A stretch of 64,000 bases of DNA, from contig JAGOOP010000004.1 of assembly GCA_017992455.1 (NCBI GenBank), positions 24,567 through 88,566 on the forward strand. Direction: 5' to 3'. The stretch comes from Candidatus Omnitrophota bacterium (GTDB lineage: Bacteria; Omnitrophota; Gorgyraeia; Gygaellales; Profunditerraquicolaceae). Of the stretch, positions 1,418 to 64,000 are shown piece after piece. Position 1 is the stretch's first letter; each line of letters begins with the position of its first letter. A program made the position numbers and the translations under genes. The notes beneath the pieces are model-generated. The model had not been told where the DNA came from. It did no database searches and was given only the letters and a program-made list of their open reading frames with translations.

Positions 1418-1529
1418 GTGCTAAAAACGGGGTCAGAATTATTTAAATAGAAAACATGGGGACGGTTCTCTTCGAGAACCGTCCCCATGTTTTCCTAAAA
1501 ATAAATAATTCTGACCCCGTTTTTAGCAC
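1418..1529. repeat. composite palindromic repeat: family-1 arms (28 bp perfect, 1418-1445 / 1502-1529) enclosing a family-2 hairpin (1451-1470 / 1474-1493)
   Basis: GTGCTAAAAACGGGGTCAGAATTATTTA ... TAAATAATTCTGACCCCGTTTTTAGCAC; inner AAAACATGGGGACGGTTCTC ttc GAGAACCGTCCCCATGTTTT; arm recurs at 4622, 48667, 58413, 63973. Confidence 0.9.
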
Positions 1530-1538
1530 GCATTTGTT

Positions 1539-1567
1539 TTGACAAGCTGCGTTTTCATTGATATTAT
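1539..1567 (+). promoter_or_regulatory. sigma70-type promoter for comF-lptFG (TTGACA-17-TATTAT)
   Basis: TTGACA 1539-1544, 17-nt spacer, TATTAT 1562-1567. Confidence 0.5.
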
Positions 1568-3526: not shown

Positions 3527-4620
3527 AGCGGTATATCCTCGGGTCGGTCTTTGTCATATTCTTCAGCTGCGCATTCACGTTCTTCTTCCTCTATATCATC
3601 ATCGACCTGTTCTCGCATCTTGACATGATCCTGAAGCAGGCGGTTTCCTGGGACGTCCTGCAACGTTATTATGCATCCTACCTGCCGATCATCTTCACCC
3701 AGGTCGCGCCCATCTCCTGCCTGCTTGCGAGCCTCTATACCTTTGCGCGCATGAACAAGGAGAACGAGATCATCGCCATGCGGTCGTCAGGATTGAGCAT
3801 CCTGCGGATAACGCGCGTGGTCATTGTATTCGGCATGATCGTGACCGGGGCCGTCTTCTGGGTCAACGACAGGATGGTGCCCCATGCGATGCTCGTCAGC
3901 AAGAAGATGCAGGAACAGATGGAAAGCGACACCGGAAAATCGCACAGCGATAAAAAAGGCCCGGACGTCATCATGGACTTCACCGTCTACGGCCTTCATA
4001 ACCGGCTTTTTTACATCAACAAGTTCTATCCGGCGGACAAAAAAATGATCGGCGTAACGGTGCTCGAGCATAACGAGAACCAGGACCTGCTCAGAAAGAC
4101 CGTTGCCTCTGCGGGGGAATATAAGGACGGGGTCTGGCACTTTTACCAAACGATCACCGACACATATGACGCCGACGGCAGGTCGATCGACGAGCATGTG
4201 TACAAGGAATTGGAAAGAATGCCGATCACCGAGACCCCGGAGGATTTTCTGGACCAGCGCCAGCATCCGGATTTCATGAACATCGCGCAACTGAAAGAAT
4301 ACATCTGGCGGCTTTCCAAAAGCGGCGCCACGACGGTCATCCGCAGCCTTCACATCGACCTGTACCAGCGCTATACGGCTCCGTTCACGAGCCTCATGAT
4401 CATCCTGCTGTCCATACCGTTCTCGCTGAAGATGAAAAAAAGAGCGACGGGGTTTTCGTCGCTCGGCCTGGCGCTTGTCGTCGGTTTCCTGTATTATATC
4501 TTGAATGCGGTCTCTATCGCCCTGGGCAAAGCCGGTATCCTGTTCCCGCTGTTGAGCGCTTCCCTCACCCACCTGACCGCGCTGTTCTACAGCCTCTACC
4601 TGATCAAAAAACTCCCGTAA
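3514..4620 (+). CDS. lptG: LPS export ABC permease, LptF/LptG family (second paralogue)
   Basis: 368 aa; MRILERYILGSVF start, same architecture; overlaps upstream paralogue by 13 nt. Confidence 0.75.
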   Translation: MRILERYILGSVFVIFFSCAFTFFFLYIIIDLFSHLDMILKQAVSWDVLQRYYASYLPIIFTQVAPISCLLASLYTFARMNKENEIIAMRSSGLSILRITRVVIVFGMIVTGAVFWVNDRMVPHAMLVSKKMQEQMESDTGKSHSDKKGPDVIMDFTVYGLHNRLFYINKFYPADKKMIGVTVLEHNENQDLLRKTVASAGEYKDGVWHFYQTITDTYDADGRSIDEHVYKELERMPITETPEDFLDQRQHPDFMNIAQLKEYIWRLSKSGATTVIRSLHIDLYQRYTAPFTSLMIILLSIPFSLKMKKRATGFSSLGLALVVGFLYYILNAVSIALGKAGILFPLLSASLTHLTALFYSLYLIKKLP

Positions 4621-4621
4621 G

Positions 4622-4708
4622 AAAGGCTAAAAACGGGGTCAGAATTATTTATTTGTCCGCTGCGTGTATCGCCGCAAATAAATAATTCTGACCCCGTTTT
4701 TAGCCTTT
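4622..4708. repeat. family-1 palindromic repeat, complete copy (34-bp perfect arms, 19-nt loop); likely bidirectional terminator
   Basis: AAAGGCTAAAAACGGGGTCAGAATTATTTATTTG (4622-4655) / exact reverse complement 4675-4708; fills the whole convergent gap between lptG stop (4620) and alr stop (4711). Confidence 0.9.
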
Positions 4709-4710
4709 TA

Positions 4711-6120
4711 TTATTTGAGGAATTTGATGCCGCAGGCGTACATGCCGTTGTCCGCGGGACGCGTCCAGACCGCGGTACCCCTGACGCGCACGGGATCGCG
4801 GCCGCGTTTTTCCAGGCTCATCTGATAGGTCCGGTACGGCAGGACCGGGTCGGGCGTATAGAGCTTCATCCCGGCCGCGCTGATATCGCCGGTTACGCCC
4901 GCCGTATCTGCCAGCGACGGGGTATCGAGGAACCGCACCGGAATGGCCTCGGGACTGCGCTCAGAACGACGTTTTTCGGCAGGGGGCGCGGCTTTTTTGC
5001 GATACACGCGCGGCACCCTGCTGTTGATGCCGCAGACGATCTCATACGGTATCGTGCCCGACAATGAAGCGAGGGATTCGGCGCTGATGCGCCGTTTTTT
5101 TTGCGTACCGATCAGAACCGCTTCATCGCCCGGCCGGACCAAAGCATCCCCCACATCGACCATGACCTGGTCCATGCACACCCTGCCTGCGATCGTGAAT
5201 CGCCGCCCGTTGATCAATACCGGCCCGGTGTTGGACAAACTGCGGGGATATCCGTCCCCGTACCCGACCGGCAGCGTCGCGATCCGCGTCGCACGCCGCG
5301 TCACATAGGTATGCCCGTAACTGACGCCGGTGCCTGCGCGGACATCTTTGACGTATACGACGCGCGTTTTTAAAGACATCACCGGGCGGATGTCTGCCGG
5401 AAGGCCTTTGACAGGGCGCAGGCCGTACAGGATCAATCCGGGCCTGACCATGGTAAAATGGCTGTCCGGATACGAAATAATGCCCATACTGTTGGCCGCA
5501 TGGACGAGCGGAATGGAGATCGAGGCCTTTCGCAGGCGGCCGACGAGCCGGCCGAACAAACGGATCTGCCTGCGCGTGAGCACGTCGTCTGAGTCGGCGC
5601 AGGCCAGATGAGTGAATATCCCTTCGATGCGGATATTCGGCAGTGCAGAGATCCGCCTGACCGGACCGAACGCCTGGTCGTGCATGATGCCGATGCGCCC
5701 CATACCCGTGTCTACCTTGATATGGATATCAACGCCCTGGCCGCGAAGACATGCCTGGCGGGAGAGCGCTTTTGCGAAAGCGAACGAACACACGGTCGGC
5801 GTAATGCGATGATCGAGCAGCGCAGGTATATCCTCTTCGCGGACAAGGCCCAGGACAAGGATCCTTCTGTCGATACCTGCCCGGCGCAGACGGACCGCCT
5901 CGTCGACGGACGCGACCGCAAGGAAATCAGCGCCCGCATCGGCCAGCTCTTGGGAAACAGGGATGAGCCCGTGGCCGTAGGCCTCTGCCTTGACGCAGGC
6001 CATGACCTTGACCCCTTTTTTGATCCGCGCCCTGACCGCGCGGAGATTATGGGAAAGATTGTCGAGATCTATCTCTGCCCACGTCTGGCGGTACCCTCGA
6101 ATATCATGCTGATCCGTCAT
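4711..6120 (-). CDS. alr: alanine racemase fused to a C-terminal PilZ (c-di-GMP-binding type) domain
   Basis: ORF 4711..6165. PLP-lysine motif ACVKAEAYGHG and GVSYGHTY. C-terminal ~87 aa (about 4714-4974) carries RRSER (RxxxR) and DISAAG (DxSxxG). ATG 6120 forms an ATGA overlap with the tsaB stop. Confidence 0.85.
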   Translation of the reverse strand: MTDQHDIRGYRQTWAEIDLDNLSHNLRAVRARIKKGVKVMACVKAEAYGHGLIPVSQELADAGADFLAVASVDEAVRLRRAGIDRRILVLGLVREEDIPALLDHRITPTVCSFAFAKALSRQACLRGQGVDIHIKVDTGMGRIGIMHDQAFGPVRRISALPNIRIEGIFTHLACADSDDVLTRRQIRLFGRLVGRLRKASISIPLVHAANSMGIISYPDSHFTMVRPGLILYGLRPVKGLPADIRPVMSLKTRVVYVKDVRAGTGVSYGHTYVTRRATRIATLPVGYGDGYPRSLSNTGPVLINGRRFTIAGRVCMDQVMVDVGDALVRPGDEAVLIGTQKKRRISAESLASLSGTIPYEIVCGINSRVPRVYRKKAAPPAEKRRSERSPEAIPVRFLDTPSLADTAGVTGDISAAGMKLYTPDPVLPYRTYQMSLEKRGRDPVRVRGTAVWTRPADNGMYACGIKFLK

Positions 6121-6842
6121 TTCTTCCCTCGATCGCGTGTCGCGCGGCGGTTTCGCACCTGGCACTCCTGCGGATGAAGATATTCAGGCCCTATCCTGAA
6201 AGGATGCGCGGTTTTGTGAGCCTGTATCAGGCGCATCCCCAGGGCAATGAGCGGCTGCGGATGCGGATGCCAGAGCTCTTTATCGATGATGACAGCGCCG
6301 GGAAACGCCGCCCTGATGCGGGACGAACAGATCTCGGATCCGTCACCGCCTATAACGATCTTTTTTGACGCGCGGGACGCGCGCGTCCGGCCCAGGCGCC
6401 TGATAAACGCGTCGTAACCCAGAAGCTCGTCCGCCCCAACCCTGCGGACACAGCCCGCAGTTTTAGAAAACCACCCGCAATACAGCATGGCGCGGCGGGC
6501 GTCGATAACGGGAACAATGAGGCCGTCCGGGATCGCCGGATGGGACGCGATCGCCTCAAGGGTGGAAACCCCGGCGATCTTCCGCGCGTTGGCCCATGCC
6601 ATTGCCTTGACCGCGGCATGGCCGATGCGAAGCGCAGTGAACGATCCGGGGCCGAGCCCCAGAACATAATGCTCGATATCGCGCGGCTGCATCCCTGCCG
6701 CGCACAGCGCGCGCCCGATCGTCGGCACCAGTACGCGGGACAACGCGATCCCCGTATCCAGGACGTATTCGAACATGCGTTCGCCGTTGACGATGCCCAG
6801 ACAGAGGTATTTGCTCGAAGTGTCAAGCGCGAGTATCTTCAT
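6117..6842 (-). CDS. tsaB: tRNA t6A37 threonylcarbamoyltransferase complex dimerisation subunit TsaB
   Basis: MKILALDTSSKYLCLGIV N-terminus, ASKHA fold pattern; next to tsaE. Confidence 0.8.
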   Translation of the reverse strand: MKILALDTSSKYLCLGIVNGERMFEYVLDTGIALSRVLVPTIGRALCAAGMQPRDIEHYVLGLGPGSFTALRIGHAAVKAMAWANARKIAGVSTLEAIASHPAIPDGLIVPVIDARRAMLYCGWFSKTAGCVRRVGADELLGYDAFIRRLGRTRASRASKKIVIGGDGSEICSSRIRAAFPGAVIIDKELWHPHPQPLIALGMRLIQAHKTAHPFRIGPEYLHPQECQVRNRRATRDRGKK

Positions 6843-9881: not shown

Positions 9882-10659
9882 CGAGCGAAAAGAACCTGAC
9901 CGCATTCTGCGTCGTTGCCCGGCAGATATCCTCGAACGGAACGTTGCGCAGTCCCGCGACCGTTTCCGCAAGCAGGCGGACCGAAGCGGGCTCGTTGCGC
10001 TTTCCGCGCGATCCTTCGGGAGACAGATACGGGGCGTCGGTCTCGAGGAACAGACGGTCGAGCGGAACGATCGCGGCCAGATCGCGCAGGCCCTGGGATC
10101 TTTTATACGTTATGTTGCACGTAAAAGAGATATAAAAACCCATGTCCAGGCAATCGCGCATGAAACGCTCATCGCCCGAGAAACAATGGACGACGGCGCG
10201 CTCCAGCTTTTCCTCCCTGACGATGCGCAGGGTATCTTCCGCCGCCTGCCGGGTATGGATCACAACAGGCAGGTCCAGGTCCTGCGCCATGCGGATGAAC
10301 GATACGAACAGCCGCTGCTGGCTGTCCTGCGGGGAGAGATTGCGGTAATAATCGAGGCCGATCTCTCCGATGGCAACGACCTTGTCCGCGGCGGCAAGCG
10401 ACCGGACCTGCGCGAGGTCGCTGTCGCTGAAATCCCTGGCGTCATGCGGATGGCAGCCGACCACGGCGTACACATTCGGGTATTTTTTTGCAAGATCGAC
10501 GGAATTGACCGAACCCTCAAGGCTGGAACCGATATTGATGATGCGCCGCACGCCCTGCGCTTCGGCCCTGCGGATGACCTCGCCGCGGTCGGCGTCGTAA
10601 TCGTGAAAGTCGATATGGGCATGCGTATCTATCAGTTCGACGTCGGTCTGCAGTGGCAT
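9874..10659 (-). CDS. tatD: TatD-family metal-dependent hydrolase/DNase
   Basis: LIDTHAHIDFH metal motif, 261 aa TIM-barrel size. Confidence 0.85.
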   Translation of the reverse strand: MPLQTDVELIDTHAHIDFHDYDADRGEVIRRAEAQGVRRIINIGSSLEGSVNSVDLAKKYPNVYAVVGCHPHDARDFSDSDLAQVRSLAAADKVVAIGEIGLDYYRNLSPQDSQQRLFVSFIRMAQDLDLPVVIHTRQAAEDTLRIVREEKLERAVVHCFSGDERFMRDCLDMGFYISFTCNITYKRSQGLRDLAAIVPLDRLFLETDAPYLSPEGSRGKRNEPASVRLLAETVAGLRNVPFEDICRATTQNAVRFFSLDV

Positions 10660-10666
10660 GATCGTG

Positions 10667-12205
10667 CTATTTCTTTTCCGTGCGTTTTTTGCCGTCCGTT
10701 TCTATCCGCGGGAACAGCGGCGCGCCTTTGGCGATCGTGTCCCGGCCGAGCTGTTCTTTGATTGACCGCGCGGTCCCGGGCATGAACGGCTCGATAAGCG
10801 ATCCGGCCGTTCGTATCACTTCCACCAAAAGCCGCATGAACGCCCGGAGCTGTTCGTCCTTGCTTTCTTTTGCCAGGTTCCACGGCTTGGTCTCTTCGAC
10901 ATATTTATTCGCCATATTGATAAGCCCCCAGAGCTGTTCGAGCGCGGCTGAAAAATTCGCGTCCTGCGCAGGCGATAACGACTGTTCCATCAGTCCGTCG
11001 ATCTCGCCGATCAGGCGGACGATCTCGGCACCGCGTTCGTCGAACCGGTACGCGCCGATATCGACCGCGGGGACATTGCCGTTATAATATTTTTCGACCA
11101 TGGTCAGCGTCCGGAACACGAGATTCCCCAGGTCATTGGCGAGATCTCCGTTGAACCGCTTGACGATGGCCTCCTCGGAAAAGTTTCCGTCAAGGCCGAA
11201 GGGCACCTCCCGGACGAGAAAATACCGGTAGACGTCGACCCCGTATTTCTTCGACATGTCAAGGGGCGCGACGACATTGCCGCGGGATTTGGACATCTTC
11301 GCGTCGTTGATGAGCCACCAGCCGTGGACGAGAAGGCTGTGCGGCGGCTCGATGCCGAGCGCGCGGAGCATGATGGGCCAATAGATGGCATGCTGGCGCA
11401 GGATATCCTTTGCCATGAGCTGAACGTCGGCCGGCCACCATTTCGACCGGTATACGCCGTCCGCATCGAACTCTCCGACCGCGCTGATATAATTGATCAG
11501 CGCGTCGAACCAGACATAGGTGACATGGCCGGGCGAGAACGGCAGCGGGATCCCCCATGACAGCCGCTCCTTCGGACGGGAAATACACAGATCGGTCAGC
11601 GTGTTCTGCCTCAGGAAGCTCAACACTTCGTTGCGCCTGATCACGGGACGCACGAAATCAGGATGTTCTTCGATGTACGAGATGAGCCAGTCCTGGTATT
11701 TCGAAAGCCTGAAGAAAAAATTCTGCTCCGCGATGTGCTCGACCGGCCGCCGGCAGTCGGGGCACAGCTTGTCGACCGCCTGCTCTTCGGTCCAGAAGCT
11801 CTCGCAGGGAGAACAATACCATCCTTCATACGTCGACTGATAGATATCGCCCTTTTGATACACGATCTCAAGCACGCGGCGGACGAATTGCTTGTGGCGT
11901 TCTTCCGTCGTGCGGATAAAATCGTCATATGAGATACCGAGATCCGCCCACAGGTCTTTGAATTTCCGGGCGATGCCGTCGGCAAAGGCCTGCGGTTCGA
12001 TGCCGGCTTGCGCCGCGGCCCGTTGTATCTTCTGCCCGTGCTCGTCGGTGCCGGTCAGAAACCAGACGCGGCCCGCCCCGAGGGACCGGCGCATCCGCCG
12101 CGCGAGGATATCGGCGGCGATCGTCGTATATGAATGGCCGATATGCGGCTCGGCGTTCACGTAATACAGCGGCGTCGTTATGTAGAATTTCTTATCCATC
12201 GTCAC
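10667..12205 (-). CDS. metG: methionine--tRNA ligase (short form)
   Basis: PHIGHSYTT (HIGH) and KMSKSRGN (KMSKS) motifs. Confidence 0.9.
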   Translation of the reverse strand: MTMDKKFYITTPLYYVNAEPHIGHSYTTIAADILARRMRRSLGAGRVWFLTGTDEHGQKIQRAAAQAGIEPQAFADGIARKFKDLWADLGISYDDFIRTTEERHKQFVRRVLEIVYQKGDIYQSTYEGWYCSPCESFWTEEQAVDKLCPDCRRPVEHIAEQNFFFRLSKYQDWLISYIEEHPDFVRPVIRRNEVLSFLRQNTLTDLCISRPKERLSWGIPLPFSPGHVTYVWFDALINYISAVGEFDADGVYRSKWWPADVQLMAKDILRQHAIYWPIMLRALGIEPPHSLLVHGWWLINDAKMSKSRGNVVAPLDMSKKYGVDVYRYFLVREVPFGLDGNFSEEAIVKRFNGDLANDLGNLVFRTLTMVEKYYNGNVPAVDIGAYRFDERGAEIVRLIGEIDGLMEQSLSPAQDANFSAALEQLWGLINMANKYVEETKPWNLAKESKDEQLRAFMRLLVEVIRTAGSLIEPFMPGTARSIKEQLGRDTIAKGAPLFPRIETDGKKRTEKK

Positions 12206-14651: not shown

Positions 14652-14671
14652 ATGGAACTCCTGGTATTGGG

Positions 14672-14825
14672 CGGGCTGTGTGGGTGCCTTCTCAGGGCAT
14701 GTGAAGCCCCGAGCGGGCACGGATCACCCGCAATCTAAATGCTCAGTGAGAGCGAGGGGCGGAACTGAGTGAGCCGGCCTCGCAGGGGCCGGCGAACGTC
14801 CCTGAGAAGGCACCCACACAGCCCG
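14672..14825. other. 154-nt structured intergenic element: 26-bp perfect closing inverted repeat around three small hairpins
   Basis: CGGGCTGTGTGGGTGCCTTCTCAGGG (14672-14697) = exact reverse complement of 14800-14825. Inner stems at 14713-17/14727-31, 14742-47/14764-69 and 14773-79/14787-93. Lies 7 nt after the cysS stop and 20 nt before the tmk start. Confidence 0.8.
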
Positions 14826-14832
14826 GCCATTC

Positions 14833-16239
14833 CTATAATTTCCTGCGCCAGGTGGTGCCGTCCTTCGTGTCCTCAAGGATGACGCCCCTCGCTTCAAGCG
14901 ATGCCCGGATACCGTCGGATTCCTTGAACTTTTTCGCCGCCTTGTATCGCGCGCGCTCGGCGATCAATGCCCGCACTTCTTCATCAGGTACGCCGCCGGA
15001 TACGCGCGCCTGGAACGACAACCCGAAAATGGCCGCGATCTCTTTTATGAAACCGGCCGCGGACGCCAGTTTCTGCGCCTGTCCGCCGTTGTCCGCTCCG
15101 TCAAGGACCTTGTTGCAGGCGGTCACGACGTCGAAAAGAACGGACAGTCCCCGCGGGGTATTAAAATCGTCGTCCATGAACCGCAGGAACTGCTCTTTGA
15201 ACGGCGCGCAGAAATCATCCGCGCCCGGATCGGCGCCCGCGCGTTCATCGCCGAGCCTGCTCAAAAGGGTTGTGATACGCTCGTATGCCTGCGTCGCCTC
15301 CTCCATCTTCTTATCGGAAAAATCGATGGGGCTGGAATAGTGAGCCTGTAAGAAGAATATTTTGAGCACATCCGGGTGATATTTCTTAAGCGCTTCCTTG
15401 ATCGTGATAAAATTCCCAAGGGATTTCGACATTTTCTGGCCGTTGATGGTCAGAAGGCCGTGATGGATCCAGTGCGTGGCGAACGACTTCCCGGTCAAGG
15501 CCTCTGCCTGCGCGATCTCGTTCTCGTGATGCGGGAATATGAGATCGCGGCCGCCGGCGTGAATATCGATCGTATCGCTTTCGAGGTATTTCATCGACAT
15601 GACCGAACATTCGATGTGCCAGCCTGGTCTGCCCGGTCCCCAGGGGCTCTCCCATGAGGGTTCGCCCGGCTTCGACGCCTTCCAGAGCGCGAAATCGAGC
15701 GGATCGCGCTTGTTCTCGTCGGAATCCTTGCGCACGCCCGTGAGCATCGCTTCGATGCTCTGGCCCGAGAGTTTCCCGTAGGACGAGAACTTCCGCACGT
15801 TGAAATACACGCCTGTCCCGGTCACGTAGGCGTACTTTTTTTCGATAAGCTTTTCTATATGCGCGATCATCCCGGGGATGTTCTCCGTCGCGCGCGGCTC
15901 GATATCGGCCCGGGGGATCCCGAGCGCCTTCATGTCTTCGTAATACCGCTCGATATATCTGGCCACGAGCCCTTTCCAATCGGCCTGCAATTCATTCGCG
16001 CGGTTGATGATCTTATCGTCGATATCGGTGATGTTGCGCACGAACAGGACGTCATACCCGCGGTACGACAGATACCGGCGTATCACCTCGAATATATAGA
16101 GGCTCCGCGCGTGGCCGATATGGCAGTCGTCATACACGGTCACCCCGCACGAATACATGGTAAGCCGGGGCGCTGCCTGCACGGCGAGCGCTTCCTTCTT
16201 TTGCGTAAGTGAATTATAAATGGTCAGCGGCGCGGGCAT
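14833..16239 (-). CDS. cysS: cysteine--tRNA ligase
   Basis: CHIGHARS (HIGH) and KMSKSLGN motifs; ATG 16239 (MPAPLTIYNSL) preferred, alternative 16287. Confidence 0.9.
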   Translation of the reverse strand: MPAPLTIYNSLTQKKEALAVQAAPRLTMYSCGVTVYDDCHIGHARSLYIFEVIRRYLSYRGYDVLFVRNITDIDDKIINRANELQADWKGLVARYIERYYEDMKALGIPRADIEPRATENIPGMIAHIEKLIEKKYAYVTGTGVYFNVRKFSSYGKLSGQSIEAMLTGVRKDSDENKRDPLDFALWKASKPGEPSWESPWGPGRPGWHIECSVMSMKYLESDTIDIHAGGRDLIFPHHENEIAQAEALTGKSFATHWIHHGLLTINGQKMSKSLGNFITIKEALKKYHPDVLKIFFLQAHYSSPIDFSDKKMEEATQAYERITTLLSRLGDERAGADPGADDFCAPFKEQFLRFMDDDFNTPRGLSVLFDVVTACNKVLDGADNGGQAQKLASAAGFIKEIAAIFGLSFQARVSGGVPDEEVRALIAERARYKAAKKFKESDGIRASLEARGVILEDTKDGTTWRRKL

Positions 16240-22781: not shown

Positions 22782-25192
<2,411 letters not shown>

Positions 25193-33283: not shown

Positions 33284-33326
33284 TCCCAGGGGCCCTGTTT
33301 GAAGCATTCAAACAGGGCCCCTGGGA
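33284..33326 (-). terminator. intrinsic-terminator-like hairpin after the cheW-MCP-Cache operon
   Basis: 20-bp perfect stem (CCCAGGGGCCCTGTTTGAA gca TTCAAACAGGGCCCCTGGG), followed on minus strand by aTTTCTT. Confidence 0.6.
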
Positions 33327-33898: not shown

Positions 33899-36049
33899 CT
33901 ATGCTTTTTCTGATCTCTCACCTCCCCGTTGATTTGATGCTGCGGCGGCTTCAGTGGAATCAAGCTTGAATTTGCTGACGATCGACATAAGATCAGCGGA
34001 CAGCCGCGCAAGCTCCTGCGCGGACGCGGACATTTCCTGCATGGAAGCGGTCTGCTCTTCGGTGCTTGAGGTCACTTCCTGCGCGGTCGATGCGGACTCC
34101 CGGGCGATCTTGACGACCTCATTCAGGCTCTTGACCACCTGTTCGACCTCGATGATGATCTGATGGCCGAATGCGACGATCTCAGAAGTTACGCCTGATG
34201 CGCTCTTGGCAGCCTCGGTGATGCCGTTCAGGACCGCAGAGATATTGGTAACCTGCGTTTTTCCTTCCTGCACCTCTTTGGAGCTCACATCGATGGCGTT
34301 GACCGCGTGCGTGGTCTCGGTCTGGATCGAACGGATCAGGCCGCCGATCTTGCGCACTGCCTCGGCAGACCCTTCGGCAAGTTTCCTGACCTCTTCTGCG
34401 ACGACGGCAAACCCGCGTCCTGCCTCGCCTGCGCGCGCCGCTTCGATTGCCGCGTTCAAAGCAAGGAGATTGGTCTGGTCGGCGATAGACGTGATCGTCT
34501 CGGTGATCTCGCCGATCTGCTGGGACATCTGGCCGAGCTTCTGGATGACCTGCGCGGTATCGGTAACGGCGCTTGTCAGCTGCTCGATCTTGGCCACCGC
34601 GACATCAGCGGCTTTTTTGCCCTGCATTGCGGTGTCGCTCGCATCGGTAACGGTCTTATTCGCGGTTTGCGCATTATCGACCATCTGTTTGATGCTCGCC
34701 GATGCCTTTTCCATGGTCTCGAACGTTTCGTCGATGCGCTGGGCCTGGGTCTCCGCGCCCTTGCTCACTTTCGTGATCGCGGTCGAGACTTCCTGGGTGG
34801 TCGCGTTCATCTCCTCGGAAGAAGAGGACATCTCCTGAGCGGAACTCGCCACCTTATTCGCCGACATGCGCACCTGCGTGATTATATTGTTCATGGTCTT
34901 GACGATGTCGTTGAAGGCATTGGCCATCATGCCCAGCTCATCCTTGCTTTTGATCGTAACGCGCTGGGTCAGGTCGCCGTTGGATATCGGCACGCTCGTG
35001 TCGATGAGCGCCTTGACGGGCTTGTTGATCGACGTAACGAGCACGAAGGAAATGAGGAGGCCGAGGAACACGGATATGACAAATCCGATGATCATGACGA
35101 CCGAGGTGCCTGACAGGGAATTGACCGACCTCTTCGAAGCGGCGGAAATATCCTTGATGCTGACCTCGGAGTTCTCCTTGACAAGCGCGAGGATCTGATT
35201 GGACAGATCGTCCAGTTTCTTTGCCTCTGCGTCCTTTTGCTGCCACTTCTGCGCGAATGACGCGTATGCGGCCTTTGTGTTGTCTGAGGCCTTCTGGATA
35301 TCGTCAAGCATCTTGCGCAGCGCCTTATGCCGCACATTGGTTATCTTTTTCAACTCTCCGACGATCTTGTTCACCTGGACGAACAGGACATTCGCATCGG
35401 TTATAACCCTCGGATTGCGGGTCACCTGCGCGCGCATGCCCACTTTATCGAGCTTGAACGCCAGATCGTTGAGATCCTTGACATATTGTATCTTGTTCAG
35501 CCGGTCCTGGAGTTTCTCCGCCTTGACCCCGACGGCGATCTCGCCCGACATTTCTCCGAGCTGGACCTTAAGGAATGCGGCAGCAGCGTCGAGGTAGACC
35601 CTGCCGGCGTCGGTCGCTTTTCCGCGCTCGGTATTAAGGCCGTTGGTGAGCTCCACGATCTGGTTCAACCCGCGCTCGTAATTTTTGAGCATCGCGTTCA
35701 TCTTACCGACAGAATCTTCCAACTGTTTAAGCCCGGAGGATTTCTTCGCCACCGCTTCCGCTTCCCCGAGAAGCTTTTTTGTCTCTTCAAGGTCCTTGCG
35801 GATCGCGGCAAGCGTCTTTTTGTCCCCGCTGACAAGATATGCCTGCGTCAGGATATAGGTATTGGAGACCATGCGCTCTATCTGATTGGAAAGATTGACG
35901 CTCGGCAGGTTCTCGTTCGAGAGGACGCCGGTTATCGTCTTGACGCGGGACAGATTGACGATCGTCAGGGTCCCGACCAGGAGCAATAACCCGAGTATGA
36001 TAACGTATCCGCCGCCTATCTTCCACCCCAGTTTGATGTCTTTTAACAT
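33899..36049 (-). CDS. methyl-accepting chemotaxis protein with long helical periplasmic domain
   Basis: 716 aa; 2 TM, HAMP, signalling hairpin [32 protein letters not shown]. Confidence 0.9.
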
Positions 36050-36859: not shown

Positions 36860-37147
36860 ATGCAGGAAAGACGCAAAACCGGCAGGTTACCGCGCCAGGA
36901 ACGGACGTTCATCGAGCACGGTGCAGGAAAAAAAGAAACCATCCTTCTTGACATCAGTATCGGCGGCATGCGCGTCCAGCTTGATGAAGCCATGAAAGTC
37001 GGCACTCCGCTGACGCTCAAAGCCAGCATCCTGCCCCACGCAGGCGCCTTCTTTATGGCAGGGACCGTGACCTGGGTCAAAGAAAGCTCTCCCGGCGTTT
37101 ACGAAACCGGCGTCAAATTCAACAAAGTAAGCACCATACCGCTCTAA
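36860..37147 (+). CDS. stand-alone PilZ-domain protein
   Basis: ORF 36794..37147; ATG 36860 after GGAGG; RRKTGR (RRxxxR) and DISIGG (DxSxxG). Confidence 0.8.
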   Translation: MQERRKTGRLPRQERTFIEHGAGKKETILLDISIGGMRVQLDEAMKVGTPLTLKASILPHAGAFFMAGTVTWVKESSPGVYETGVKFNKVSTIPL

Positions 37148-37149
37148 AA

Positions 37150-37190
37150 CAAGGGGACGGTTCTCAAAGAACGAGAACCGTCCCCTATGT
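37150..37190. repeat. family-2 hairpin repeat, solo copy
   Basis: AGGGGACGGTTCTC aaagaac GAGAACCGTCCCCT + ATGTTT; same core as 1451-1493 and 48706-48752; starts 3 nt after PilZ stop. Confidence 0.75.
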
Positions 37191-37226
37191 TTCCGCTGTA
37201 ACTGGCAAAAGAACATTATACGGAAT

Positions 37227-37279
37227 AAAAAGAGACGGTGTAATTTTGTGATCCTCTCAAAATTACACCGTCTCTTTTT
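37227..37279. terminator. bidirectional terminator hairpin between convergent PilZ and MCP genes
   Basis: 21-bp perfect stem AAAAAGAGACGGTGTAATTTT / AAAATTACACCGTCTCTTTTT, 11-nt loop; A/T runs on both sides. Confidence 0.7.
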
Positions 37280-37286
37280 ATTCTAT

Positions 37287-39041
37287 CTACGCTTTTTTGC
37301 CTGACGCAGCTGATTTCTCGTCCAGCTTGAATTTGCCGACCATTTCTTTCAGGTCCATGGCCAGGCGCGCGAGCTCCTGCGCAGATGCGGACATCTCTTC
37401 CATCGACGCAGTCTGTTCCTGCGTGCTCGACGACACTTCCTGGACGGTCGAGGCCGATTCCTTCGCGATCGCAGCGACCTCGTTGATCGCCTTGACCACA
37501 CGCTCGACCTCGACGACTAATTGCTGTCCCGATTCCGAGATCGAACTGGTCACGCTCGATGCATCCCGCGCGGTTTTATTGATCTCGGTCAGGACGTCTG
37601 CGATCTTGGCAACCTGCGTCTTGCCTTCCATGACCTCTTTCGAGCTCATTTCGATGGCGCTGACCGCATGGCCCGTCTCGGACTGGATCGAGCGGATCAG
37701 GCCGCCGATCTTGCGCACTGCCTCGGCAGACCCTTCGGCAAGCTTCCTCACCTCTTCTGCAACGACCGCAAACCCGCGTCCTGCCTCGCCTGCGCGCGCC
37801 GCTTCGATTGCCGCGTTCAAGGCAAGGAGGTTGGTCTGGTCGGCAATAGACGTGATCGTTTCGGTGATCTCTCCGATCTGCTGGGACATCTGGCCGAGGT
37901 TCTGGATGACCTTTGCCGTATCCATAACGGTCCCTGCAAGCTTCTCGATCTTGTCAACGGTCAACTGCGCGGTATTGCGGCCTGTTTCGGATACGGAACT
38001 CGTCTGCTCGACTGCCTTGTTGGCGCTTTGAGCGCTTGCGACCATGGTCTTCAGGCTCGCGGCGGTCTTTTCCATGGTCATGAACGTTTCTTCGACGCGC
38101 TCTGCCTGGGTATTCGCGCCTTTTGAAACCTTCTGAACGGCTGTCGAGACTTCCTGCGTGGTCGCGTTCATCTCTTCGGAAGAGGAGGACATTTCCTGCG
38201 CGGAGCTGGCGACCTTATCGGCGCTCGTGCGCACCTGATACACGACATTATGCATTGCGGCGATGATGCTGTTGAACGCCTGGCCGATCCTGCCCAATTC
38301 GTCCTGGGTCTTGATATTGATCTTGGCGGTCAGGTCGCCGGAGGTGACCGGGGCCGTGCCTTTGATAAGGATTCCGACGGGATTGGTGAGCATCCTGCGC
38401 ATCAGGAATGTGACCAGGACGATCATCAGGATCAAGCCGATGACGGAAAATACTATGTTGTTGAACTGTGTCTTGCGCATCGCAGACTCGATAGGAGCCC
38501 AGTCGAGGCAGATCCGCAGGACTCCGAGCCATTCCATCTTGGCGCCGTGGCAGTTATGACAGCTTTTTTCGTTCGGGATGGGCTTGAGGACCGTAAAGAC
38601 CCTGCCTTTGGCGTTGCGGCGCGGCTCAAGGCCTTCGAAATGCGCGCCGTCAAGCGCCGCGTTCAGGTTCTTTTCGATGACGGACTGATCGGCCTTGACG
38701 TCGAGCTTTTTGCCGTTCAACGCTGTATCCGTCGCGCGCTTGACCTCGCCTGAATGCTCGGTCAGCTGCATCTCGACAATGCCCTTGACGTTCTTGAATT
38801 GATCGAACTGCATCTGGATGACGTCCTGATCCCCGGTCATCATGGGATACCTGATGGCGGTCATGACCGTGTCGGCCAGTTCAAGCGCAGCGTTCTTCTC
38901 GCGGTCGAACAATGTATCGTTCTGCGACGCCACGTTCATGAACGTGATGATCGCCAGGCTCAACACCAATCCCGCGCTCAGCCATACGGCAAGCTTGTTC
39001 CCTATGGATTTTTTTACATTGAAGATCTCGATCATATCCAC
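37287..39041 (-). CDS. methyl-accepting chemotaxis protein with periplasmic c-type haem-binding motif (CxxCH)
   Basis: 584 aa; TM1 - ~150-aa periplasmic domain containing [13 protein letters not shown] - TM2 - HAMP - MCP signalling domain. Confidence 0.85.
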
Positions 39042-47651: not shown

Positions 47652-48668
47652 ATGGACGAAAAAATATTATTAGCGCACGGTTCAGGCGGAAAGCTGACGC
47701 ACCGGCTCTTAAGCGAGATCGTGTTCCCCGCGTTCTCCAATCCGATATTGAAAAAATGCGAGGACGCAGCTGTGGTGCCGATGGAGGGCAGATGCGCGTT
47801 CACGACCGATTCATTCGTCATCCAGCCGGTATTCTTTCCCGGCGGCGACATCGGGAAGCTTGCGGTCTGCGGCACGGTCAATGACCTTGCGGTCATGGGC
47901 GCCCGCCCCCGATACCTCACCGCCGCCTGTATCATAGAAGAAGGGCTGGAGATCTCCGTCCTGCGAACGGTCGTCGCGTCCATGGCTCAGGCGGCAAAAA
48001 AAGCGGGCGTTCAGATCGTCGGCGGGGACCTGAAGGTCGTTGAAAAAGGCGCCTGCGATAAGATATTCATCAATACGACAGGCATCGGGCTCATCTTGAA
48101 AACCTGCCGCATCTCCGCAAATAATGCCCGGCCCGGAGACTGCGTCATCATCAACGGCACGATCGGCGATCACGGCGCCGCGGTCATGTCAGCGCGCAAA
48201 GATTATAAGCTGCGCAGTTCCATCCGCAGCGACTGCGCCTGCCTCAACGGCCTTATTGAACGCGTACTCCGTGCCGCGCCGGGTGTTCATGTCATGCGCG
48301 ATCCGACGCGCGGCGGCGTGGCGACCACGCTCAAGGAGATCGCGCTCCAGTCGAATGTGGAGATACTGATCGAAGAAGACGCCCTGCCGGTAAACGGCCC
48401 GGTGCGCGGCTTATGCGAAATACTCGGCATCGATCCGCTCTATATGGCCAACGAAGGCAAGGTGCTCGTATTCGCCCCGGCCAAAGACGCTCAAAAGATC
48501 ATAGCCGCCATGCGAAAACATCCGCTCGGAAAACGCGCAGCCGTCATCGGCCGCGTAACAAGCCAGCCTGCCCGTTCGGACACCCCGCATGTGCTCCTCC
48601 ACACCTCCATCGGCTCCACCCGCATCATCGACATGCTCTCCGGCGGCCAGCTCCCCCGCATCTGCTAA
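47652..48668 (+). CDS. hypE: carbamoyl dehydratase HypE
   Basis: AIR-synthase-like fold, C-terminal PRIC. Confidence 0.9.
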   Translation: MDEKILLAHGSGGKLTHRLLSEIVFPAFSNPILKKCEDAAVVPMEGRCAFTTDSFVIQPVFFPGGDIGKLAVCGTVNDLAVMGARPRYLTAACIIEEGLEISVLRTVVASMAQAAKKAGVQIVGGDLKVVEKGACDKIFINTTGIGLILKTCRISANNARPGDCVIINGTIGDHGAAVMSARKDYKLRSSIRSDCACLNGLIERVLRAAPGVHVMRDPTRGGVATTLKEIALQSNVEILIEEDALPVNGPVRGLCEILGIDPLYMANEGKVLVFAPAKDAQKIIAAMRKHPLGKRAAVIGRVTSQPARSDTPHVLLHTSIGSTRIIDMLSGGQLPRIC

Positions 48669-48752
48669 AGGCTAAAAACGGGGTCAGAATTATTTATTTT
48701 CCCGAAAAACATAGGGACGGTTCTCGAAAAACGAGAACCGTCCCTATGTTTT
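48667..48752. repeat. family-1 left arm (48667-48700) joined to family-2 hairpin (48706-48726 / 48732-48752); no right arm
   Basis: AAAGGCTAAAAACGGGGTCAGAATTATTTATTTT cccg AAAACATAGGGACGGTTCTCG aaaaa CGAGAACCGTCCCTATGTTTT; begins on hypE stop codon. Confidence 0.9.
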
Positions 48753-58412: not shown

Positions 58413-58497
58413 GGGCTCAAAAACGGGGTCAGAATTATTTATTTGCCGAGAGCCGGGTAGGCAGCAAATAAATAATTCTGACCCCGTTTTTGAGCCC
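58413..58497. repeat. family-1 palindromic repeat, complete copy (34-bp perfect arms, 17-nt loop)
   Basis: GGGCTCAAAAACGGGGTCAGAATTATTTATTTGC (58413-58446) / exact reverse complement 58464-58497; between ccsA stop and nikR promoter. Confidence 0.9.
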
Positions 58498-58513
58498 CGT
58501 TTTCAGCACTTTG

Positions 58514-63963: not shown

Positions 63964-63972
63964 AAAGTTCAA

Positions 63973-64000
63973 GGGCTAAAAACGGGGTCAGAATTATTTA
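63973..64000. repeat. family-1 repeat arm, truncated by window end
   Basis: GGGCTAAAAACGGGGTCAGAATTATTTA; abuts the 5' end of the ahbC/D ORF. Confidence 0.85.

Follow-up and report, generated by a model that had tools for sequence, protein, structure and literature searches.

Palindromic elements of a Candidatus Omnitrophota genome as probable miniature derivatives of a TIRtron with a Y1/HUH transposase

Genes for enzymes like RAYTs, the tyrosine transposases associated with REPs (repetitive extragenic palindromes), are in some cases flanked not by REPs but by long inverted repeats; for such a unit the name TIRtron was introduced, and for its enzyme the name TIRYT (Di Nocera et al., 2013, PMC3733652). 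TIRYT repeats share the motif GGGGWSAS, are found at constant distances, may overlap the gene ends, and form moderately abundant families of singles, dimers and groups (PMC3733652). Most TIRYTs fall into TnpA-Y1 subclass 2.1, the Group 1 of Bertels (Quentin et al., 2018, PMC6006769). Members of this subclass, of median length 238 amino acids, are extended at the C terminus, and their signature comprises NH[VYF]H, W[EQ], and YIELNP or Y[IV]HLNP; they occur in about 15% of the surveyed strains and are listed without REP-like sequences (PMC6006769). RAYT Group 1 is likewise described as having only modest repeat frequencies (Bertels et al., 2017, PMC5581495).

Here, we report on palindromic elements in a 64,000-nucleotide stretch (hereafter, the window; positions 24,567 to 88,566 of contig JAGOOP010000004.1, assembly GCA_017992455.1) of a Candidatus Omnitrophota bacterium. 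A first-pass annotation made from the sequence alone had noticed five loci with palindromes of arms up to 34 bp and had proposed a REP- or MITE-like element (MITE being a miniature transposable element with inverted repeats), or a dedicated protein- or RNase-recognition hairpin. An inverted-repeat scan and a 31-mer search recovered all five loci where they had been placed, the 31-mer having six window matches at up to three mismatches against 0.00 expected (100 shuffles). We refer to these palindromes as family A and to a second palindrome family as family B. The A arm has a G+C content of ~35%, compared with ~58% for the window; its core, GGGGTCAG, agrees with GGGGWSAS at 8/8 positions, and the B core, GGGGACGG, at 7/8.

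The REP- or MITE-like proposal is supported by a cognate Y1 transposase gene that stands between inverted A arms in the same assemblies, and we consider it probable (roughly 0.8) that a TIRtron with a single-copy Y1/HUH gene gave rise to the palindromes as miniature, non-autonomous derivatives. The annotation had also recognized no described family. This holds for the sequence, which is in no paper that we found, but not for the kind, since inverted repeats of TIRYT genes with GGGGWSAS have been described. A literature search for the repeat sequence returned chance matches in unrelated papers only, and we found no paper containing the A sequence or connecting Omnitrophota with such repeats. 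The kind is thus already known though little studied; this sequence and the host phylum are new.

An arm-flanked Y1/HUH transposase gene

Genome and metagenome stretches fetched for comparison carry labels such as L109 or L117. In a screen of genes bracketed by arms on both sides, a 230-amino-acid open reading frame (ORF) occurred in two loci. The Y1 genes were the sole transposases among the five arm-bracketed genes, the other three being those for a Fic-domain protein, a TPR protein and sigma-54. In L109 the gene (10001-10693) encodes a protein of the same 90%-identity cluster as that ORF, with the accessions HNQ50681.1, HQO37456.1, HQQ05667.1 and MBP6919401.1. LptF and LptG of the window are named Candidatus Omnitrophota in four NCBI assemblies; because the accession prefixes of the transposase match those of the window LptG, we take these to be the same four assemblies, and the transposase protein is also present in a JGI sample shared with the window contig. 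The search for a cognate tyrosine transposase that the first-pass annotation had suggested therefore yielded a gene from the same assemblies, flanked by inverted A arms.

The left arm of L109, AAGGCTAAAAACGGGGTCAGAATTATTTA, lies at 9911-9939, ~60 nt upstream of the start codon, and the right arm, the reverse complement of AAGGCTAAAAACGGGGTCAGAATTATTTA, lies at 10682-10713 and includes the stop codon of the gene. A NUDIX gene and a DEAD/DSHCT helicase gene are the neighbors. Gene order is identical in 3/3 places shown, the rest of the 12 contigs being collapsed as similar places, and the gene appears to be single-copy. A relative at 78% nucleotide identity has the orthologous locus in the same arrangement with identical arms, and the same arm-gene-arm geometry recurs in L035, L112, L113 and L114 (40-57% G+C), in L090 and L108, and in L115. 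Omnitrophota orthologs at 40%, 48% and 50% G+C keep the core as well. The stretch L115 (9870-10760), from Candidatus Tectimicrobiota at 66% G+C, encodes a 52%-identical enzyme; its repeat, AAAAATGGGGTCAGAGAACATTTTTGG, occurs twice upstream and once inverted downstream, and keeps the head GGGGTCAGA with a different distal part (ATTATTTATTT versus GAACATTTTT in Tectimicrobiota).

The 230-amino-acid protein matches Pfam Y1_Tnp (E ~1e-13 to 2e-13), and its sole NCBIfam match is the REP-associated tyrosine transposase model (NF047646). When it is aligned with E. coli RayT, the HUH and YIxxNP motifs coincide. Residues H60, H62, W99, Y120, I121, E122, N124 and P125 are invariant, and the consensus reads LMxNHFHLL, LWEGRF and RYIEMNP, with I or F as the hydrophobic residue of HUH. 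A single-sequence search of the PDB returned nothing at E <=0.01, and the matches came from a profile and a structure model: the AlphaFold model (pLDDT 90.9) has 4ER8_A, E. coli TnpA-REP, as its best PDB match (E 5.7e-10, TM 0.74 normalized to the target), followed by the IS608 and ISDra2 transposases.

The comparison with described systems is closest for TIRtrons. Like a TIRYT, the enzyme is a Y1/HUH protein of ~230 amino acids with a C-terminal extension and the motifs NH(I/F)H, WE and YIEMNP; like a TIRtron, the gene lies between long, non-self-complementary inverted repeats at fixed distance, the 3' repeat overlapping the coding sequence, and the repeats are dispersed as singles, dimers and groups (five loci in the window). 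Unlike known TIRtrons, the unit belongs to a new phylum, Omnitrophota, with a related case in Tectimicrobiota; its dimers are uniform in size (87-93 bp), their 34-nt arms match perfectly, and the center is constant at 19 nt, with the end of the transposase gene as its apparent source; and occupied as well as empty sites are documented, as is a center inverted between strains. The REPIN-RAYT systems of Pseudomonas and Enterobacteria (Bertels and Rainey, 2011; structure 4ER8) are similar in their single-copy, vertically inherited Y1 enzyme flanked by repeats, in the inverted doublet of fixed spacing that forms a long hairpin as the mobile unit, in arms that are more conserved than the spacer and change in mirrored fashion, and in a mainly extragenic distribution with solo arms that are apparently decay products. 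They differ in that a canonical REP is an imperfect palindrome of 20-40 nt with a 5' GT[AG]G tag, neither of which applies to the A arm, and in that the enzyme here falls into a different subclass and narrowly misses the cut-off of the NCBIfam RAYT model. Since enzyme and arms have the features of TIRYTs and not those of canonical REPs, we interpret the palindromes as a TIRtron-derived dimer family that probably works in a REPIN-RAYT-like manner.

Two further observations concern genes of this type. Every transposase gene has a conserved 5'-leader hairpin (L109 9957-9998; L112, L113 and L114; for the B-type gene, L113 8279-8315), in which the Shine-Dalgarno region (AGAAAGGGGG or GAAGGAGG) pairs with an upstream CCCTCTTTCT-like stretch around the loop CGTCTATTA, and changes in the stem between species are compensatory. 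Translation of IS200 is known to be repressed by such a leader hairpin, and by analogy the hairpin probably represses translation here. A third Y1_Tnp ORF, of 397 amino acids (L030 7053-8246; L025 7138-8331), lies ~400 nt from an A dimer; it was rejected as the cognate gene, as no inverted repeats of either family surround it.

Anatomy, copying and insertion polymorphism of family A

A metagenome scan for the core gave 94 stretches, and 98 distinct dimers and 30 solo arms were extracted from the fetched loci. The consensus in high-G+C relatives is AAAGGGCTAAAAACGGGGTCAGAATTATTTATTTG-N19-CAAATAAATAATTCTGACCCCGTTTTTAGCCCTTT; low-G+C Omnitrophota have the same core with AAAAT...ATTTT flanks and shorter loops. 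Elements measure 87-93 bp, and the core-to-core span is exactly 61 nt in 52 of the 98 distinct dimers. Inspection of a single arm shows neither an evident palindrome within it nor a GTAG. A hairpin needs two paired arms. An indel mirrored in both arms (GGCTCAAAAAC / GTTTTTGAGCC), noticed earlier between window copies, is real, and similar mirrored changes are common among relatives, including A5/T5 versus A6/T6 runs, CTAATAAC/GTTATTAG and a recurring A-to-T substitution. A comparison of divergence in arms and flanks at homologous sites had only seven usable pairs and was upset, being ungapped, by the A5/A6 length changes.

The near-identity of arms described in the first-pass annotation stands. 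The loops, there said to share nothing, are unrelated within the window only; family-wide, the 19-nt centers form sub-families, two different ones of which supply the centers of the two A dimers of the window. Among centers at non-homologous sites, 86 pairs differ by no more than 5/19 nt, compared with 0.005 expected from shuffling; whole units, center included, have been copied. The 21 nt between dimer arms are also similar to the 21 nt just inside the right arm of the TIRtron (mean 10.1/21 matches, best 14/21; 7.26 with a standard deviation of 0.27 for shuffled centers), and show no resemblance to the sequence beside the left arm. Miniature transposon derivatives usually arise by internal deletion, and the simplest reading of these sequences is that the dimers would have arisen in this way, the gene being removed and both ends left.

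An extra partial foot lies just outside 12 of 175 distinct arms, the 58413 copy of the window included. These feet read GCTnAAAAC, sometimes with GGGG (L017, L029, L042, L063, L064, L091 and L103), and may be traces left by earlier copies or by insertion that recurred at the foot.

Insertion polymorphism is seen in three syntenic relatives of the window, found through LptG homologs. L117, L118 and L119 keep the lptF-lptG / alr gene order, with LptG 90%, 79% and 58% identical to that of the window, and their stop-to-stop gaps measure 4, 18 and 2 nt where the window has an 87-bp element. L117 also lacks the A[B]A composite (a B dimer between two A arms) in the gap between divergent promoters, and the A core is absent from ~59 kb of the three relatives; two of the window elements are therefore polymorphic insertions. 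Clean empty sites came from these relatives, and motif-fetched loci gave three partial cases only. At one orthologous site, with flanks 94% identical, L085 (536-596) has an A dimer where L028 (5725-5790) has AAGGCTAAAAACGG, an A foot, and then a B dimer. At another, with flanks 98% identical, the 19-nt center CTAAAGACTAAGTAGCCAG is inverted between L049 (1548-1608) and L086 (2953-3013), which is a flip between inverted arms.

These filled and empty sites also bear on whether the elements are classical MITEs, that is, deletion derivatives of DDE-type insertion sequences moved by double-strand cut-and-paste. Terminal inverted repeats, a small fixed size, a lack of coding capacity and dispersal would all fit, and family A resembles the Correia/NEMIS elements of Neisseria and other MITEs in being short, bounded by inverted repeats, gene-adjacent and able to form long transcript hairpins, which in those families can act as terminators or RNase III targets. 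Correia/NEMIS elements, however, have TA target duplications and are presumed to derive from DDE elements, whereas family A is paired with a Y1/HUH gene, the only kind of transposase found between such repeats (no search was aimed at DDE genes), and no target-site duplication is seen on comparing filled with empty sites. The published GGGGWSAS repeat motif is, moreover, specific to TIRYT genes (PMC3733652). We judge a DDE origin very unlikely.

In the GTDB representative set, the exact 23-mer did not retrieve the host genome and is found only in other Omnitrophota metagenome-assembled genomes (MAGs) and in one 'Babeliales' contig, and Omnitrophota MAGs with the exact core in the genome collection have ~40-44% G+C. 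The contig of the window recurs in many metagenomes from anaerobic digesters and sludge, and strains of the window species carry the A elements unchanged. The one match in a MAG labeled Babeliales could hint at an assembly or binning artifact, or at chance matches in other phyla. That contig (L006 5860-5975) is rich in G+C and contains the 3' end of a tRNA together with a B dimer and an A arm; its composition and the presence of both families make it probable that an Omnitrophota contig was misbinned. Independent assemblies (NCBI, JGI, ENA and Logan) hold identical elements, and the chance of an artifact is practically negligible. A scan of the whole window against Rfam at the gathering threshold returned no family. 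The 17-mer core had no match in viral contigs, so nothing points to a phage origin.

A core with an A/T-rich flank that is common to many Omnitrophota of very different G+C content, in inverted pairs at gene ends, is also what might be expected of DNA uptake sequences, such as the DUS of Neisseria or the USS of Haemophilus, whose inverted pairs double as terminators. The distribution argues otherwise: all 8 A arms in the 64-kb window lie between genes, and none is clearly intragenic (the 4 'inside_ORF?' cases among 66 site groups of the wider set reflect crude ORF calling), and their density is ~1 per 8 kb and not ~1 per kb. With the fixed dimer size, the related centers and the cognate transposase, an uptake role for the arms seems highly improbable. 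Two other classes of repeat were set aside. CRISPR does not fit, as the arms are inverted and form no arrays. Integron attC sites have RYYYAAC / GTTRRRY ends, extrahelical bases and cassette arrays; the ends here are TAAAAAC / GTTTTTA, the stems are perfect, and the elements are dispersed among housekeeping genes.

Elements of the window and the nested family B

The elements of both families in the window are listed in Table 1. Their placement relative to genes, as described in the first-pass annotation (the lptG/alr gap, the hypE stop, the interval from ccsA to nikR, and the radical-SAM gene), is correct by stop and start coordinates.

Table 1. Palindromic elements of families A and B in the window, with predicted folding energies and neighboring genes
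Feature	Position	Strand	Structure	Context
Complete A dimer (probable miniature TIRtron)	4622-4708		Arms 4622-4655 / 4675-4708, 34 nt, 100% complementary, arm AAAGGCTAAAAACGGGGTCAGAATTATTTATTTG; 19-nt center; predicted hairpin -61.5 kcal/mol as RNA (z -12.2), -40.4 as DNA (z -15.3)	Occupies convergent lptG/alr gap; lptG stop 4618-4620, alr stop 4711-4713
Complete A dimer	58413-58497		Arms 58413-58446 / 58464-58497, 34 nt, 100% complementary; 17-nt center of the 'CCTCGAACGGGGTGAGCAG' sub-family; extra C mirrored in both feet	~16 nt past Cytochrom_C_asm (ccsA-like) stop (~58514, minus strand); 65 nt ahead of nikR start (58348, minus strand)
Putative remnant foot of an older A copy (tentative)	58495-58509		CCCCGTTTTCAGCAC	Directly outside right arm of the 58413 dimer
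A[B]A composite	1418-1529		A arm 1418-1445, B dimer 1450-1494, A arm 1502-1529; A arms 28 nt, 100% complementary, 56 nt apart; predicted RNA energy -84.8 kcal/mol (z -15.1)	Between -35 boxes of two divergent promoter-like sites, 1399-1371 (-) and 1539-1567 (+)
Solo A arm	48667-48700	+	Partner arm missing	Overlaps last two bases of hypE stop (ORF end 48668)
A arm cut by window end	63971-64000	+	Belongs to the left side of an A[B]A composite	Between hemB (ALAD) stop and start (63963) of a radical-SAM/SPASM gene
B dimer	1450-1494		GAAAACATGGGGACGGTTCTC ttc GAGAACCGTCCCCATGTTTTC	Inside the 1418 composite
B dimer	48706-48752		AAAACATAGGGACGGTTCTCG aaaaa CGAGAACCGTCCCTATGTTTT	Directly after the solo A arm
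B dimer	37146-37192			No nearby A element

The 56-nt 'loop' of the 1418 copy is itself accounted for by a perfect palindrome of family B, for which the general form is GGGGACGGTTCTC-N3-5-GAGAACCGTCCCC. The arm at the end of the window is the start of a second such composite: in the near-identical strain L120 it continues as a full A[B]A composite (5888-5990). At 48667 a solo A arm stands directly before a B dimer, and the two together may be what is left of an A[B]A composite that has decayed.

Family B has an enzyme of its own. A paralogous Y1 gene, ~35% identical, lies between B-type arms (AAAAATAGGGGACGGTTCTA...) in two independent genomes (L113 8249-9007; L122 5588-6406), so that enzyme and repeat co-vary. 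Of the 19 distinct B dimers in the ~1.05 Mb fetched, 8 occupy an A-dimer center and another 6 adjoin a solo A arm, a proportion far above the share of space that those targets occupy. The pattern suggests that B inserts into the single-stranded loop of an extruded A hairpin. Nested loci comprise, besides the 1418-1529 composite and the L120 copy, L007 279-368 and loci in L062, L069, L088, L091 and L102. At L007 5990-6045, which lies 6.5 kb upstream of where the window begins, a B half-site (CCGGAGAACCGTCCCTAAG) occurs twice in tandem and lacks a partner arm; L007 and L010 differ there by a 7-nt indel.

Several other features of the window were seen in passing. The alanine racemase gene that abuts the 4622 dimer (4711-6165, minus strand) encodes a protein with a PilZ domain at the C terminus (Pfam). 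Precisely where the element abuts, the final codons of the gene depart from those in the closest relative, and insertion of the element may have reshaped the end of the gene. Repeats unrelated to family A include a long imperfect, terminator-like palindrome at 37208-37298, a perfect 20-nt palindrome at 33284-33326, a 44-nt inverted repeat at 14654-14843 with arms 102 nt apart, and two 300-nt direct repeats (34219-34949 / 37580-38310; 89% and 72% identity) that look like paralogous genes.

Possible mechanism, RNA roles and significance

The mechanism that we propose is modeled on E. coli TnpA-REP and on the IS608 and ISDra2 TnpA enzymes. The parent TIRtron would be a Y1/HUH gene (TIRYT; TnpA-Y1 subclass 2.1; RAYT Group 1) between two ~32-nt terminal inverted repeats, and each 87-93 bp element would consist of the two repeats, left and right, with ~19 nt between them that stem from the 3' end of that gene. 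Such a REPIN-like dimer could snap into a perfect hairpin on single-stranded DNA, of which the enzyme would, by analogy, recognize the foot, AAAAAC-GGGGTCAG. It would then cleave and rejoin single-stranded DNA at the replication fork, and dimers would thereby be copied or moved in trans. Repair or templating across the hairpin might keep the arms identical and so give rise to the mirrored changes. The paralogous enzyme would act likewise on B, which would land preferentially in or beside A elements, and surviving copies, most of them just after stops, may serve as bidirectional terminators or 3'-end stabilizers. Elements of the IS200/IS605 family (IS608 and ISDra2) share the catalytic fold, and the chemistry proposed here, on single-stranded DNA and guided by a hairpin, would be the same; they differ in having distinct sub-terminal hairpins at each end, in being multi-copy and autonomous, and in inserting next to a defined tetra- or pentanucleotide.

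Several points weigh against a derivation from a TIRtron moved in this way. The score of the enzyme against the curated RAYT model NF047646, 71.4-76.5 bits, is just below the cut-off of 80. Neither a target-site duplication nor a consistent target was identifiable in two filled/empty pairs. To our knowledge, activity has been shown for no TIRYT; a single arm is neither a hairpin nor GTAG-tagged, so recognition may differ from that by E. coli TnpA-REP. At some sites an element is present in distant as well as in close species, and the conservation of arms could thus partly reflect selection and not recent copying. The copy number is an extrapolation from 6 loci in ~91 kb. Finally, a B-type transposase gene could not be assigned to the window species: ten candidate clusters lack the accession series of its assemblies.

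Selection would be central if the elements were primarily RNA hairpins of the host, serving as bidirectional intrinsic terminators or as 3'-end stabilizing or processing structures such as RNase III substrates, with an incidental or historical link to the transposase. Their position is in keeping with such a role. In the wider set of 66 site groups, for which gene context rests on crude longest-ORF calls, 38 are tandem and 13 convergent (51 together) and only 3 divergent; 73 gene ends and 49 gene starts face an element, and about 52 of the 73 facing stops lie within 40 nt of the core. Many stops fall inside the element or a few nucleotides from it, for example the TAA of GGCTAAAAAC or of TAAGGCT. 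The predicted hairpins are very stable as RNA or DNA (z -11 to -16) and have terminator-like features, namely a mirrored A5-6 tract and a CGGGGUC...GACCCCG stem base followed by U5-6. Homologous sites are, in addition, occupied in species of 40-57% G+C with diverged centers. A simple terminator scan lists none of these sites, because it allows only loops of 3-8 nt. From these sequence features it is plausible that the elements are bidirectional terminators or 3'-end stabilizers.

As the primary explanation, however, an RNA role meets several difficulties. Ordinary terminators do not need identical 34-nt stems; close relatives do without an element at the same gene ends, where the gap is just 2-18 nt; a Y1 transposase gene stands between such arms; and the two A[B]A composites of the window and its surroundings are found in gaps between divergent promoters, which shows that termination is not the reason the elements exist. 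We therefore regard a primarily host-selected origin as unlikely, if the most serious of the alternatives, and an RNA function as better placed as a secondary, exapted role. The protein- or RNase-recognition hairpin offered in the first-pass annotation is likewise a possible secondary role, and is not needed to explain the family.

With derivation from a TIRtron as the preferred reading, a broader picture can be drawn, though we hold it to be doubtful: the elements might be persistent, vertically inherited intragenomic replicators of a REPIN-like system outside RAYT Groups 2/3, in which a single-copy subclass-2.1 Y1 enzyme keeps up a population of perfect hairpins, the host uses these as bidirectional terminators next to stop codons, and the single-stranded A loops are preferred targets of B. 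If true, the nested elements would document naturally, in vivo, that hairpins are extruded and that Y1 enzymes target their loops.

TIRYT enzymes are numerous yet almost unstudied. The elements described here offer a clean TIRYT case in an uncultivated phylum, with abundant uniform dimers, a plausible origin of these by internal deletion, and a nested second pair of enzyme and repeat. In Omnitrophota MAGs, palindromes that abut stop codons could mislead gene callers, terminator predictors and binning, and the elements explain them. They also make a good test system for whether TIRYTs mobilize hairpin dimers as RAYTs are thought to mobilize REPINs.

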